64,000 nt of DNA. It comes from Candidatus Entotheonellaceae bacterium. GTDB lineage: Bacteria; Tectomicrobia; Entotheonellia; Entotheonellales; Entotheonellaceae. The translations under genes were made by a program, and so were the position numbers. The stretch's first letter is position 1, and the number at the start of each line of letters is the position of its first letter. This document shows positions 47,795 through 64,000 of this stretch, piece by piece. The notes beneath the pieces were generated by a model. It saw nothing but the letters and a program-made list of their open reading frames with translations, was not told where the DNA came from and searched no databases. The stretch spans positions 960,001 through 1,024,000 of the forward strand of contig OZ250173.1 of assembly GCA_965238075.1 (NCBI GenBank). Reading direction: 5' to 3'.

Positions 47795-48085
47795 ATGGCG
47801 ACACGACAAAAGCTATCCGAGGCGGAGGTGGCCGCTCGGCTGCCCGAGTTGCAGGGCTGGGAACTCATTGACGGCAAACTCAGCAAAACGTTCCGATTCG
47901 ACACATTCGTCAACGCTTTCGGGTTCATGGCCAGCGTCGCACTGGCGGCGGAATCGATGAACCACCATCCGGAATGGTCCAACGTTTATAATCGCGTCAC
48001 CATCGCCCTGACCACCCACGACGTCGGCGGCCTCAGCGGCCTGGATTTCACCCTCGCGCAGCGCATCGAAGACATCGCCGCCTGA
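47795..48085 (+). CDS. phhB: Pterin-4-alpha-carbinolamine dehydratase
   Basis: [23 protein letters not shown]. Confidence 0.93.
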
Positions 48086-48117
48086 GGCGCCGCGATCTTG
48101 GAAAGGAGGCTCTGCAA

Positions 48118-48531
48118 ATGGACAAGCCGAGCGACAAGAACATCGCCAAAATGCAGAAATACGCCGAGAAATTTGCCGAAAAGTCAGGTAGTTACCTGCA
48201 CCCGGACCGCAGCGTCACGGAAACCGTTGTCGAGGGTTTGGCGCGGCATATCGAGGAGGTCGGCGTGCCGCTGTGCCCGTGCAACTTCTACCCCGACAAG
48301 CCGGCCGAGGCGAAGCTGCGCCGCTGGCGTTGCGCCTGCGACGAAATGCAGATGTACAAGTACTGTCACTGCCTGTTGTTCGTTAACAAGGAGGGCGTCC
48401 CGATTACCGAGCACCTACCCGAGGATCACGAGGGACGGCAGATATACGGCCTTGTGAAAGACCCACATGCTGATAAAGGACGGGCGATGCGGCACAGGAT
48501 CGGCGCCACCGAGGAGGCGGCGCACGATTAA
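48118..48531 (+). CDS. Ferredoxin:thioredoxin reductase catalytic (beta) subunit
   Basis: GLA...PLCPC...CAC.EM...CHCLLF motif set (4Fe-4S plus disulfide). Confidence 0.9.
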   Translation: MDKPSDKNIAKMQKYAEKFAEKSGSYLHPDRSVTETVVEGLARHIEEVGVPLCPCNFYPDKPAEAKLRRWRCACDEMQMYKYCHCLLFVNKEGVPITEHLPEDHEGRQIYGLVKDPHADKGRAMRHRIGATEEAAHD

Positions 48532-48577
48532 GCGCGCGGCGTCTGTCCTGAGCGGCGGGGCGTTCGCCGCGCGCTTT
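48530..48577. terminator. Putative bidirectional terminator between FTR and the seleno-glutaredoxin
   Basis: AAGCGCGCGGCG...CGCCGCGCGCTT inverted repeat filling the convergent gap. Confidence 0.55.
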
Positions 48578-48578
48578 C

Positions 48579-48812
48579 CTACGAGGCGAGCGCCGCGTCG
48601 ATGGCGGCGGGATTAAATCCGCTGAGCCGCTGCTCGCCGATCACCACCACCGGCAGGGAGCGCAACCCCATGCCGATCAATTCCTGCACGGCGTCGGGAT
48701 CACGGGCGACATTTTTTTCAACAAACGCGACCCCCTTCTGCGATAGATACTCCATCGCTTGGTGACAGGGGCCTCAACCGACGTTGCTGTAGACGATCAC
48801 TTCTTTGTCCAC
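48579..48812 (-). CDS. Glutaredoxin/NrdH-like selenoprotein (UGPC; Sec UGA at 48774-48776)
   Basis: Manual translation MDKEVIVYSNVG-U-GPCHQAMEYLSQKGVAFVEKNVARDPDAVQELIGMGLRSLPVVVIGEQRLSGFNPAAIDAALAS*; RBS AAAGGAAG; absent from the ORF track. Confidence 0.9.
48729..48773 (-). promoter_or_regulatory. Bacterial SECIS-like stem-loop (glutaredoxin gene)
   Basis: Directly after UGA: lower stem GGCCCC/GGGGUC and apical hairpin GCGAUGGA-GUA-UCUAUCGC. Confidence 0.75.
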
Positions 48813-48851
48813 GCTCACTTCCTTTCTCTCAGCCCGCGCCTTGCCGCGGAA

Positions 48852-49199
48852 TTAGCCCAACGTCTCAACCAGTACTTGCTCATTGTAGCCGACGACGAGG
48901 GTGCGTCCGACGCGCAGGGTGGGGGCTCGCAGGTTGCCGGTGGGCCCCAGCATCAGCTTGGCCACCGCGTTATCAGTCGGCGGCTCGGCGCCCAGATCGA
49001 GCTCCGTCAGCTTCTTGCCCTTCGCGACAACCAGGCGGTCGGCCTGCTCCACCAATGCCAACGCATCGCTCAGCCCGAGCTTCCTACTCGCCGGAATCGT
49101 GTCTTGCACCGTCACGTCATGGGTCTCCAAAAACCTGGAAACCTTGGCGCAGGTGGTTCAACCCTTGCGGTGATAGTACCAATCCACTTGCCGGCTCAT
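48852..49199 (-). CDS. ArsC/Spx-like selenoprotein (UTTC; Sec UGA at 49158-49160)
   Basis: Manual translation MSRQVDWYYHRKG-U-TTCAKVSRFLETHDV...LMLGPTGNLRAPTLRVGRTLVVGYNE; RBS GAAGGAG; the ORF track shows only the post-UGA part. Confidence 0.9.
49122..49157 (-). promoter_or_regulatory. Bacterial SECIS-like stem-loop (ArsC-like gene)
   Basis: Hairpin GGUUUCCAG-GUUU-UUGGAGACC beginning 14 nt after the UGA. Confidence 0.75.
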
Positions 49200-49226
49200 G
49201 TGCACTCCTTCGCGGGTCTTGCGCCT

Positions 49227-49526
49227 CTACTCGTCCGCCGTTTCCCCAACGGTGATGCGGTCCTTGATGTTTTCAAAGGTCTTCTCGCCAATTCCCGAGA
49301 CCTTCATGATGTCTTCGATGGTTTCGAAGGACTGTGCCTCCCGGTACTCGATAATGGCCTTAGCTTTTGCTTCACCGATGCCCTTCAACATCATCAACTC
49401 GACCTCGTCGGCCGTGTTGATGTTGATGGGCGTGCCCTCGTCCTGCGCCGTACCCAAACCCAGGCCGCCGACCAGAAGGGCAATCGTCAGGGCAGCGGCT
49501 GCCAAGCGCCGCCTATCGAATTTCAT
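49227..49526 (-). CDS. comEA: ComEA-like helix-hairpin-helix DNA-binding protein
   Basis: Signal peptide; ININTA..EL..LKGIGEAKAKAIIEYR...VSGIGEKTFE. Confidence 0.9.
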   Translation of the reverse strand: MKFDRRRLAAAALTIALLVGGLGLGTAQDEGTPININTADEVELMMLKGIGEAKAKAIIEYREAQSFETIEDIMKVSGIGEKTFENIKDRITVGETADE

Positions 49527-49754
49527 AGGGGGCTCCTTCTCCGTTGAGTGGGCCGAACACGAACAAGAACCGACCTCCCGGAGTCTGTCCGGGAAGTCAG
49601 AAACCGAGGCGGCAGGTTACGGACTGGCACCGGCGAAGTCAAGCCATTCTCGGCTTGACAAACCGTGCGGGGTTTTGCCACCGTACCGGAGCCGAAAACA
49701 CGCGCTCCTTTGGCCAGGAACGTTTGAGACAGTCATCAAACACGGGGATGCGGC

Positions 49755-50606
49755 ATGCGCTTCACCAAGATGCACGGGCTTGGTAACGATTACATATACG
49801 TCAACGGCTTCGACGAACAGGTCGACGACCCCGCCGCGGTGGCGCGGGCGGTGAGCGACCGGCATTTCGGCATCGGCGCCGACGGCCTGATTCTCATCCT
49901 GCCCTCCGACAAAGCCGATTGCCGCATGCGCATGTTCAACGCCGACGGCAGCGAAGCGCAGATGTGCGGCAATGGCATCCGCTGCGTGGCCAAATACGTC
50001 TACGACCACGATATTGCCCGCCGCACTGCCCTGAACGTGGAAACCCTGGTGGGTGTTCTGAATCTGGACTTGTTTGTCGCCGACGGCGTGGTCGACAGGG
50101 TGCGCGTCAAGATGGGCGAGCCTCGCCTGCAGCGGGCGCAGATTCCCATGCAAGGGGCATCGGGCGAAGTGATCAACGAGCCGCTGCCTGTCAATGGCGC
50201 CACCTTCGACGTCACCGCGGTATCGATGGGCAACCCGCATTGCGTGGTGTTCGTGGAAGACGTTGCCAGCTTCGACGTGGCCGGCTGGGGCCCGCACTTT
50301 GAGCACCACGCCGCCTTCCCGGAGGGGGTCAACACCGAGTTCATCCAGGTGCGCGACCGGGAATCGTTCAGCATGCGCGTCTGGGAACGCGGCTCGGGCG
50401 AAACGCTTGCCTGCGGCACCGGCGCCTCGGCCGCCGCGGTGGCGTGCCACCTCACCGGGCGCGCGGACCGGCGGGTCACCGCGCACCTGTTGGGTGGTCC
50501 CCTGGAATTGGAATGGCAGGCCAGCGATAATCAGGTCTTGATGACCGGCCCGGCCGTGGAGGTGTTCAGCGGCGAATGGCAGCAGCAGGAGGAAGCGCGC
50601 TCATGA
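49755..50606 (+). CDS. dapF: Diaminopimelate epimerase
   Basis: [40 protein letters not shown]. Confidence 0.97.
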
Positions 50607-62698: not shown

Positions 62699-64000
62699 AT
62701 GAACACGCTGCAAGCCGTAGCGCGACTTTTGAAGGTAGAAGGCGTCGAGTGGGTGGCATGCTTTCCGTCCAATAATCTCATCGAAGAGGTGGCCAACGAA
62801 GGCATCCGTCCCATCATGTTTCGGCAGGAGCGCGGCGCCATGATGGCCGCCGACGGATACAGCCGCATGCACGACCGCAGGAAGTTCGGCGTGGTCATCA
62901 CCCAGGGCGGCCCCGGCTCCGAGAACTCCATGGGCGGCTTGGCCCAGGCGTTCGGCGACAACGTGCCCATCCTCTACCTGCCCGGCGGCCCAGCGGTGAA
63001 CCAGCACGACATCCGGCCCAATTTTTCCCCGGTGCGGACGTACCAGTCGGTGTGCAAATACGGCGAGGTGATCTGGAAACCGGACATGGTCGGCAGCGTC
63101 ATGCGGCGCGCTTTTCACCACCTGCGCAACGGGCGTTCAGGTCCGGTGATCGTCGAGATCCCCGGTGATGTCGGCACCGGCGAGGTACCCGATGCCGTGG
63201 TGCAGAACTACCAGCCGCCCAAGCGCCACCTGCAGGCGCCGTCGGCGGGCGACGTGAAGGACGCCGTCAAGTTGTTATTGGGCGCCCGCAAGCCGCTCAT
63301 CTGGTCCGGCATGGGCACGTTGATGGCGGAAGGCACTGAGGAGTTGCGGGAATTGGCCGAGCTGACGGAAGTGCCGGTCTACTGCACCATGCCCGGCAAG
63401 TCCGGCTTCGACGAGCGCCACCCGCTGGCCCTGGGCTCCGGCAGCGGCGCCACCGGCCTGCACGCGCGGCGCTGGATTCAGGAATCCGACGTGCTGCTCG
63501 CCCTCGGCTCCAGCATGACCCGTACCACCTACGGCCAGCCCATCCCGGACGGCAAGACGATCCTCCACAACACCGAGAGCATCGAGGACATCAACAAGGA
63601 CTTTTCCGCTGCCGTCGGCCTGCCCGGCGATGCCCGCCTCGCCATCCGCATGCTCATCGACGAGGTGAAGGGGCAACTTGGGGAGAACGGCCGCAAGGGG
63701 CAGACCCAAGTCGCCGCGGAGATCGCCGAAGTGAAGCAGCAATGGATGTCCGAGTGGACCGACACCCTGCGCTCCGACGAGGTGCCGGTGACCGCCTACC
63801 GCATCATTGGCGAGCTGGAACGCAACCTCGACAAGGACAACAGTATCGTCACCCACGACGCCGGCACGCCGCGCGACACCATCATGCCGTTCTACACGGC
63901 CACCGTGCCCCACAGCTACGTCGGCTGGGGCAAGACCACCCACCTCGGCTACGGCATCCCGCTGATGATCGGTGCGAAGCTCGCCAAGCCCGACAAGTTC
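62699..64000 (+). CDS. Thiamine pyrophosphate-dependent enzyme (acetolactate synthase superfamily), truncated by the window end
   Basis: Manual translation MNTLQAVARLLKVEGVEWVACFP...RQERGAMMAADGYSR...QGGPG...THDAGTPRD...GWGKTTHLGYG; RBS GGAGG. Confidence 0.9.
   Translation, partial: MNTLQAVARLLKVEGVEWVACFPSNNLIEEVANEGIRPIMFRQERGAMMAADGYSRMHDRRKFGVVITQGGPGSENSMGGLAQAFGDNVPILYLPGGPAVNQHDIRPNFSPVRTYQSVCKYGEVIWKPDMVGSVMRRAFHHLRNGRSGPVIVEIPGDVGTGEVPDAVVQNYQPPKRHLQAPSAGDVKDAVKLLLGARKPLIWSGMGTLMAEGTEELRELAELTEVPVYCTMPGKSGFDERHPLALGSGSGATGLHARRWIQESDVLLALGSSMTRTTYGQPIPDGKTILHNTESIEDINKDFSAAVGLPGDARLAIRMLIDEVKGQLGENGRKGQTQVAAEIAEVKQQWMSEWTDTLRSDEVPVTAYRIIGELERNLDKDNSIVTHDAGTPRDTIMPFYTATVPHSYVGWGKTTHLGYGIPLMIGAKLAKPDKF

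Follow-up and report, generated by a model that had tools for sequence, protein, structure and literature searches.

Our analysis indicates that two neighbouring genes on the minus strand of a 64,000-nucleotide stretch of DNA from a Candidatus Entotheonellaceae bacterium (hereafter the window; assembly GCA_965238075.1, contig OZ250173.1, positions 960,001 to 1,024,000) are both working selenoprotein genes, in each of which an in-frame UGA would be read as selenocysteine (Sec). We put the probability of this reading at about 0.93, a figure that applies to the selenoprotein reading alone; the partnerships of the two products, and of a neighbouring ferredoxin-thioredoxin reductase catalytic subunit (FTRc), lie outside it. 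We call the upstream gene A, whose predicted product is an ArsC/Spx-fold selenoprotein with the active site U14-T-T-C17, and the downstream gene B, whose predicted product is an NrdH/YruB-like glutaredoxin-fold selenoprotein with the active site U13-G-P-C16. Both fall in kinds of selenoprotein that have already been described, and they do not make up a new kind of system; the local feature, of modest interest, is that two selenoprotein genes lie beside the sole FTRc gene of the genome.

Gene models

Gene A runs from an ATG at 49199 to a TAA at 48852-48854 (48852..49199, minus strand, 115 amino acids) and is preceded, as read from the sequence, by a ribosome-binding site, GAAGGAG, at 49205..49211 (minus strand), 5 nt 5' of the ATG. 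Its sole in-frame TGA is codon 14, at 49158..49160 (minus strand), in the context YHRKG-U-TTC. Gene B lies on the same strand at a spacing of 39 nt (48579..48812, minus strand, 77 amino acids, stop TAG at 48579-48581), and its sole in-frame TGA is codon 13, at 48774..48776 (minus strand), in the context YSNVG-U-GPC. For B we consider the GTG at 48812 a likelier start than the GTG at 48818, which would give 79 amino acids, because an AGGA stands 7 nt 5' of the former and 1 nt 5' of the latter, and because the codon at 48812 is ATG in most orthologues. The start is uncertain in one orthologue of B (locus L029 of genome G007, ~1918-1956), where CTG takes the place of the usual start codon and the sole nearby in-frame ATG directly precedes a second TGA.

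Conventional gene calling misses both genes in their full form. A list of open reading frames (ORFs) made with translation table 11 holds just the parts that follow the TGAs, 92 amino acids for A and 58 for B, and the public protein relatives are mostly such truncated ORFs as well (87-92 amino acids for A, 58 for B). What matters for annotation is that most public gene calls give A and B as truncated ORFs without their active sites. A preliminary description of this region, made from the letters of the sequence, had already called the two genes hidden from ORF calling and had given the same span and structures, namely two minus-strand genes, each with a ribosome-binding site, a start and a TGA where a UxxC motif opens. 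Our gene models agree with it in all these respects, as they do on the cis-Pro motifs that it had pointed out, LRAP, whose R91 and P93 do not vary over 88 sequences, and SLP, whose P54 is conserved to at least 90%.

Evidence for selenocysteine

The same description had proposed that both genes are translated with Sec, on the argument that two chance nonsense mutations at one and the same catalytic position would be very improbable, and among the places that it had named to look were the genome, for the Sec machinery; the homologues, for the residue at the TGA column; and sequencing reads, for TGC or TGT in place of TGA. The machinery is all present. The source genome, which is a single contig of 3.35 Mb, contains selA (606.7 bits), selB (357.7 bits) and selD (318.8 bits), all above their curated cut-offs, together with a tRNA-Sec that scores 73.9 bits, again above its cut-off, and that has the anticodon TCA according to ARAGORN. 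Genes selB and selA are adjacent to one another on the minus strand (G000:C1:1025501-1028793), 1.5-4.8 kb beyond base 64000 of the window and ~17 kb from genes A and B.

The TGA codons themselves are strongly conserved. Our search for orthologues covered 61 related genomes, 13 of which yielded an orthologue of gene A, and in every one of these (13/13) there is a single TGA within the match, at the same column. We also scanned one genome per species, which turned up relatives of A at no fewer than 599 loci, and inspected the best 80; all 80 have TGA at the Sec column (79 by pattern, the last read individually), and they span Gammaproteobacteria, Myxococcota, Acidobacteriota, Planctomycetota and other phyla. 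For gene B, TGA is found in the 13 best matches and in two genomes of a sister family, and orthologues with TGA come from three families; the sole Cys-form exception among the 16 best is a paralogous copy without a stop, of 74% identity (G009:C151).

Full-length homologues show what the column holds where it is not a stop. Cysteine predominates for both proteins, being found in 18 of 23 homologues of A (the other 5 have Trp) and in 19 of 21 homologues of B (one Trp, one Ser). The Trp is probably a TGA that was read under code 4 gene calling. The full-length entries of the public collection with Trp at this column are P0037, P0062, P0076, P0089, P0111 and P0139; most likely these come from metagenome contigs that were called with a code in which TGA is Trp, and are mis-translated rather than truncated.

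Codon changes among relatives point in the same direction. Comparing 12 orthologous pairs, we find upstream of the TGA of gene A residues that are invariant with synonymous changes in their codons (Y8, Y9, R11, K12 and G13), and upstream of the TGA of gene B likewise (K3, V5, V7, Y8 and N10); downstream of both TGAs there is synonymous change with invariant amino acids too. These codon comparisons show purifying selection before as well as after each TGA, and hence that the two sides are translated in one frame. As for sequencing data, contigs from four public runs belonging to four studies carry strain differences nearby, and none of the differences listed, which are all but one, falls at either TGA. 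The proposal of Sec translation is thus strongly supported for both genes by the machinery, by the conservation of TGA and by the Cys homologues, and the argument from chance mutation is borne out by a TGA that is kept in 13/13 and 80/80 loci for A and in all but one of the 16 best matches for B.

Hairpins downstream of the UGA codons

Just 3' of each UGA we find a predicted stem-loop with G(U) in its apical loop, as is expected of a bacterial Sec insertion sequence (SECIS). Counting positions from the U of UGA, the SECIS-like hairpin of A occupies +19..+38 (49123..49142, minus strand; GGUUUCCAG-GUUU-UUGGAGACC) and that of B +19..+37 (48740..48758, minus strand; GCGAUGGA-GUA-UCUAUCGC), and the GU of the loop is invariant at +27/+28 in the alignments of both genes. 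This common spacing and loop GU is likely to be the pattern that SelB recognizes in this organism, and it could aid in finding other selenoproteins.

For gene A the hairpin could be examined across the family. With a fixed 7-bp helix, 83.5% of cells pair over 84 family members, and sliding the 3' arm as a control drops the pairing to 26-46%. The covariation score is 0.228 as against 0.112 in shuffles, and none of 500 shuffles reached it; pair 21:36, for example, is GC in 27 sequences, CG in 18 and GU, UG or AU in 10. Because the helix lies within conserved coding sequence, some of its pairing simply follows from conservation of the protein; two-sided changes such as these do not. For gene B the hairpin is invariant in 15 orthologues, and here the codons carry the argument. 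Among 12 orthologues, 45 degenerate codons of the gene have an invariant amino acid, and 38 of them vary synonymously; the five consecutive ones that lie in the hairpin (A19, E21, Y22, L23 and S24) are all synonymously frozen, as compared with 2 of the 40 elsewhere in the gene. The hypergeometric probability of this is ~2e-5, by a hand calculation on codons that were picked after the fold had been seen. Moreover, in two distant Sec-homologues of B the stem is kept through an exchange of U-A to A-U.

Some points weigh against the selenoprotein reading. The energies of the two hairpins, folded as single sequences, are unremarkable (z of -1.28 for A and -2.04 for B), and the case for them rests on comparison between sequences rather than on single-sequence folding. 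A search of Rfam over 48400-49400 (E <= 1) gave no match, a result to which we attach little weight, since we know of no general bacterial SECIS family in that database. Finally, contigs of the RNA libraries X12 and X17 span the A/B locus, yet transcription is not thereby proven: neither transcription nor strand nor the layout of an operon can be read from contigs of this kind, and we do not count them as expression.

How might the conserved TGAs arise if they do not encode Sec? They could be true stops, or the genes could be pseudogenes, in which case the real genes would be the downstream ORFs of 92 and 58 amino acids, and it is indeed exactly these truncated ORFs that gene callers report in many genomes. 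However, a product that begins after the TGA would have neither the active-site motif nor the first strand of the fold. In A the 13 codons, and in B the 12, that precede the TGA are moreover conserved as protein with synonymous change and stand behind a ribosome-binding site of their own, and the position of the TGA is held across phyla. We therefore regard this explanation, which the comparative sequence data already contradict, as extremely improbable. Alternatively, an altered code or a near-cognate tRNA could insert Trp, Gly or Cys at UGA. This would account for the Trp at the column in some database entries, but Trp is also what a code 4 gene call would print for TGA. The genome has a full Sec machinery, each UGA is followed by a conserved hairpin, and the position is that of a redox-active Cys in the homologues. 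Furthermore, neighbouring frames read with TGA as a sense codon are long and hold many such codons (17 in one and 9 in another), whereas A and B hold exactly one each. To this second explanation, too, we would assign hardly any probability, and translation of both UGAs as Sec remains by far the best account.

Family and fold of protein A

Protein A scores 122.7 bits on the NCBIfam model NF041106, "ArsC family (seleno)protein", for which the cut-off is 85, and its residues 5-109 match model positions 1-106 of 107; on the Pfam model ArsC it scores 26.1 bits, the cut-off being 24. By these scores A is a member of NF041106 (ArsC_rel_Se_1), a catalogued and widespread selenoprotein family. Among 88 aligned members of this family the active-site column never holds anything but U or C, and Y9, R11, U/C14, C17, A37, G61, G85-P-T-G-N89, R91, P93 and G104 are invariant. 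A resembles the other members in its UxxC motif, its in-frame TGA and the invariant block GPTGNLRAP, and differs in its neighbours alone, a second selenoprotein gene following A here and being absent at 78 of 78 loci in other phyla. The family appears as "Arsenate reductase-like protein, UxxC" in a table of a 2026 review (PMC13188914), and Zhang et al. 2006 (PMC1794560) already give an "ArsC-like" selenoprotein in their Table 1.

Among solved structures, A is closer to Spx proteins than to arsenate reductases. We found no match at E <= 0.1 between A and TIGR00014, the glutaredoxin-coupled arsenate reductase, nor did a comparison with PDB sequences (E <= 1) bring up an ArsC of the R773 type. 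In R773 ArsC an arginine triad, R60, R94 and R107, surrounds the catalytic Cys, and R91 in the LRAP motif of A may correspond to one Arg of this triad. The best PDB sequence matches of A are instead to Spx (7f75_G at E 5e-5), in an alignment that places U14 and C17 on the CxxC of Spx and in which LRxP and VGYNE are common to the two. An AlphaFold2 model of A, built from 88 sequences, has a predicted local distance difference test score (pLDDT) of 93.0 and a predicted template-modelling score (pTM) of 0.84. When this model is used as a Foldseek query, Spx, YffB and an "ArsC-related" structure come first and the top 8 matches are Spx or Spx-like, with template-modelling (TM) scores of 0.52-0.55 and root-mean-square deviations of 6-7 A for the Spx matches, and the first true arsenate reductase, V. 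cholerae ArsC, is at rank 13. By both sequence and fold, Spx of Bacillus subtilis (1z3e, 3gfk, 6ghb, 7f75) is thus the closest solved relative of A.

Could A then be a redox sensor that binds RNA polymerase as Spx does, with Sec in place of the first Cys of a CxxC switch, and no catalytic reductase at all? The sequence match at E 5e-5, the shared CxxC, LRxP and VGYNE positions and the eight leading Foldseek matches all speak for such a regulator. Against it, A scores 31.2 bits on the Spx/MgsR model TIGR01617, well below the cut-off of 75.05, and its TM scores to Spx are low and its deviations large. Moreover, with 115 residues as against ~131 in Spx, A stops where the C-terminal tail of Spx would begin, and the model of A contains a beta hairpin at residues 55-68. 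We consider a regulatory role of this kind quite unlikely. The best explanation of the sequence and of the model is that A is a small thioredoxin-fold selenol/thiol oxidoreductase with an ArsC/Spx-type fold.

Family and fold of protein B

Protein B scores 48.6 bits on the Pfam model Glutaredoxin (PF00462, gathering threshold 22.9) over residues 7-63. It falls short of every NCBIfam cut-off, with 71.1 bits as against 88.55 for YruB (TIGR02196) and 58.5 as against 85.75 for NrdH (TIGR02194). On the Uxx-star models NF041212, NF041114, NF041211 and NF047338 it scores 42.6, 25.7, 35.1 and 36.3 bits; the cut-offs of these models range from 66 to 100 bits (66 for Uxx_star, where B has 42.6), and B is below all of them. 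In the PDB, the sequences closest to B are those of the small dithiol glutaredoxin cGrx1 (7c10, E 1e-11) and E. coli NrdH (1h75, E 3e-9), both of which have the length and fold of B. The active sites differ, being CVQC in NrdH, CPHC in cGrx1 and UGPC in B, and the stretch SGFRP of NrdH aligns with the C-terminal SGFNP of B. NrdH has thioredoxin reductase as its reductant. In the UGPC of B we see the thioredoxin motif, its first residue replaced by Sec.

Taken together, these comparisons are best explained if B is a redoxin of glutaredoxin fold that resembles NrdH and YruB and has a UGPC site of thioredoxin type. B shares with Sec-containing glutaredoxins a score over the Pfam threshold, a U at the first active-site position and the cis-Pro motif, and differs from them in having UGPC rather than CPYC. 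Sec-containing glutaredoxins (PF00462, UxxC) stand among the experimentally verified selenoproteins in the 2026 review (PMC13188914), and a selenocysteine-containing glutaredoxin is listed by Zhang et al. 2006 (PMC1794560).

Possible electron supply and partners

In the mechanism that we propose, SelB with Sec-tRNA(Sec) would decode the UGA of A and that of B as selenocysteine, the recoding being guided by a hairpin that begins 15 nt after the UGA and presents a loop GU at +27/+28. The products would be two small thioredoxin-fold selenol/thiol oxidoreductases, of which B would be kept reduced by FTRc and may hand electrons to A, among other targets. The latter two steps concern partnerships, to which we attach much less confidence than to the recoding itself.

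FTRc is encoded on the plus strand at 48118..48531, convergent with gene B, and has the motif CPC-x16-CAC-x8-CHC. It scores 81.4 bits on PF02943 (threshold 22) and is the sole PF02943 gene of the genome. In its alignment to 1dj7_A (E 1e-25) the six Cys and the His all fall on their counterparts. The variable subunit of the reductase (PF02941) was not found in the genome, nor was an NADPH thioredoxin reductase found with TIGR01292, on which the best match has 46.4 bits as against a cut-off of 343.45; with the same model 13 of 14 control genomes pass. The organism may depend on ferredoxin for disulfide reduction.

Does FTRc serve B? FTRc adjoins B in 10 of 13 family loci, and a natural fusion of a glutaredoxin with a ferredoxin-disulfide reductase is present in the PDB (7pwe), which counts in favour of the idea. 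A ferredoxin disulfide reductase reportedly serves an NrdH-like redoxin (Wei et al. 2015). In the ferredoxin-thioredoxin reductase system of Synechocystis (1dj7, 2puk) the clients have a site of the CGPC type, as does B; unlike in that system, no variable subunit was found here, FTRc and B are convergent and do not form an operon, and the client would be a glutaredoxin-fold selenoprotein. Several points tell against an FTRc-B partnership. FTRc is convergent with B and is not co-transcribed with it. FTRc was not found within the 1.5-kb flanks of B in three related genomes (G006, G012 and G013), nor at two sister-family loci. A canonical thioredoxin is encoded elsewhere in the genome and could be the client of FTRc. 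More generally, synteny within one family is weak evidence, which counts against any of these partnerships. On balance we hold it plausible, though somewhat short of an even chance, that FTRc, single-copy and adjacent to B, keeps B in the reduced state, and this is a better-supported lead to the partner of B than is a pairing of B with A.

The preliminary description had envisaged such a pairing, in which B, as a Sec-glutaredoxin, regenerates A just as glutaredoxin does for ArsC, the two forming a dedicated Sec-Sec redox pair. Genes A and B are on the same strand, 39 nt apart, with no terminator-like site between them. Of the 13 loci in related genomes that bear A, 12 keep the tandem and the last is a 2-kb contig. 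A precedent has reportedly been published under the title "Tandem use of selenocysteine" (Kim et al. 2011), namely a Sec-glutaredoxin that serves a Sec-enzyme. However, all the genomes that carry the tandem belong to one taxonomic family. At 78 loci of other phyla no B-like gene was found within 3 kb of A, using a hidden Markov model built from close relatives of B alone, which a very distant glutaredoxin could escape. Nor does any other neighbour recur at these loci, where the largest cluster, not counting A itself and its shadow ORFs, is a dehydrogenase-like ORF present at 7. None of five other genomes with a Sec form of A has an orthologue of B, the best matches being Cys glutaredoxin-like proteins of 29-33% identity in three of the five. 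Conversely, two sister-family genomes have B, and A was not detected in them; at one of these loci (G015) B stands beside ORFs that look PdxS/PdxT-like and integrase-like, as judged by eye. Since A and B are each found without the other, we take them to be separable modules whose adjacency is particular to one lineage.

Further points tell against such a pair. A has neither a match to TIGR00014 nor an R773-type ArsC among its PDB matches within the limits given above. No glutathione synthetase (gshB) was detected, since the highest score that the genome gives on TIGR01380 is 21.6 bits as against a cut-off of 299 (gshA was not searched), and this, together with the NrdH-like character of B, argues against a glutathione-coupled scheme of the ArsC type. 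The preliminary description is therefore not supported on this point, and a dedicated pair in which A works like a glutaredoxin-coupled ArsC is in our view unlikely. The broader proposition that B passes electrons to A, among other targets, fares a little better and is still rather unlikely; the whole of the case for an A-B pairing is the adjacency of the two genes. By the evidence of gene context, a functional pairing that is general across the A family is unlikely.

If all steps were to hold, these sponge-associated Entotheonella relatives would have a single selenol relay, driven by ferredoxin and running through FTRc and B to A, which we think improbable as a whole, more so than either the FTRc-B or the B-A step by itself. 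Were it true, a disulfide-reducing chain of two selenoproteins would stand in for the usual NADPH systems, and the NF041106 family would gain its first physiological reductant. The locus is a compact setting for that family, since a possible reductant, B, is encoded alongside, as is a reductase, FTRc, that may act upstream of B.

Other features of the locus and the genome

Upstream of gene A, at a distance of 27 nt, lies a ComEA-like helix-hairpin-helix gene (49227..49526, minus strand), which is conserved in this position within the genus only. It may share a transcription unit with A. Scanning 48000-49800 for promoters and terminators, we found no promoter-like site, and no terminator between the ComEA-like gene, A and B; the sole terminator-like sites lie upstream of the ComEA-like gene. 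Just upstream of it there is a terminator-like hairpin at 49570..49600 (minus strand), with 13 bp followed by a T-rich tail, so the ComEA-like gene, A and B possibly form one transcription unit that starts after this hairpin. At the other end, the gap across which the stop codons of B and FTRc face each other (48532..48578) contains a GC-rich inverted repeat (GCGCGCGGCG ... CGCCGCGCGC). This repeat may be a terminator common to the two genes; it lacks a T run and was not picked up by the terminator scan.

As to the organism, the closest named loci to A, with 94% and 93% identity, are labelled "uncultured Candidatus Entotheonella sp.", and several of the runs that contain this stretch are labelled sponge metagenome. 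Judging by titles and the beginnings of abstracts, no selenoproteome study was among the papers returned by a search on Entotheonella and selenocysteine, though supplements may contain lists of selenoproteins.

Finally, the genome contains further candidate selenoprotein genes outside the window. A third candidate lies on the minus strand of G000:C1 at ~26.0-26.9 kb (locus L142, ~480-1220), and would encode a fusion protein in which a glutaredoxin domain with VG-U-SSC forms the N-terminal part and is joined to a DinB_2 domain (Pfam scores of 33.2 and 28.8 bits); the same TGA-containing frame is found in most related genomes. In addition, a thioredoxin-like match to PF00085 of ~23-25 bits at G000:C1:83177-83305 (plus strand) falls in a frame of 222 amino acids with one TGA, and may be a further selenoprotein.

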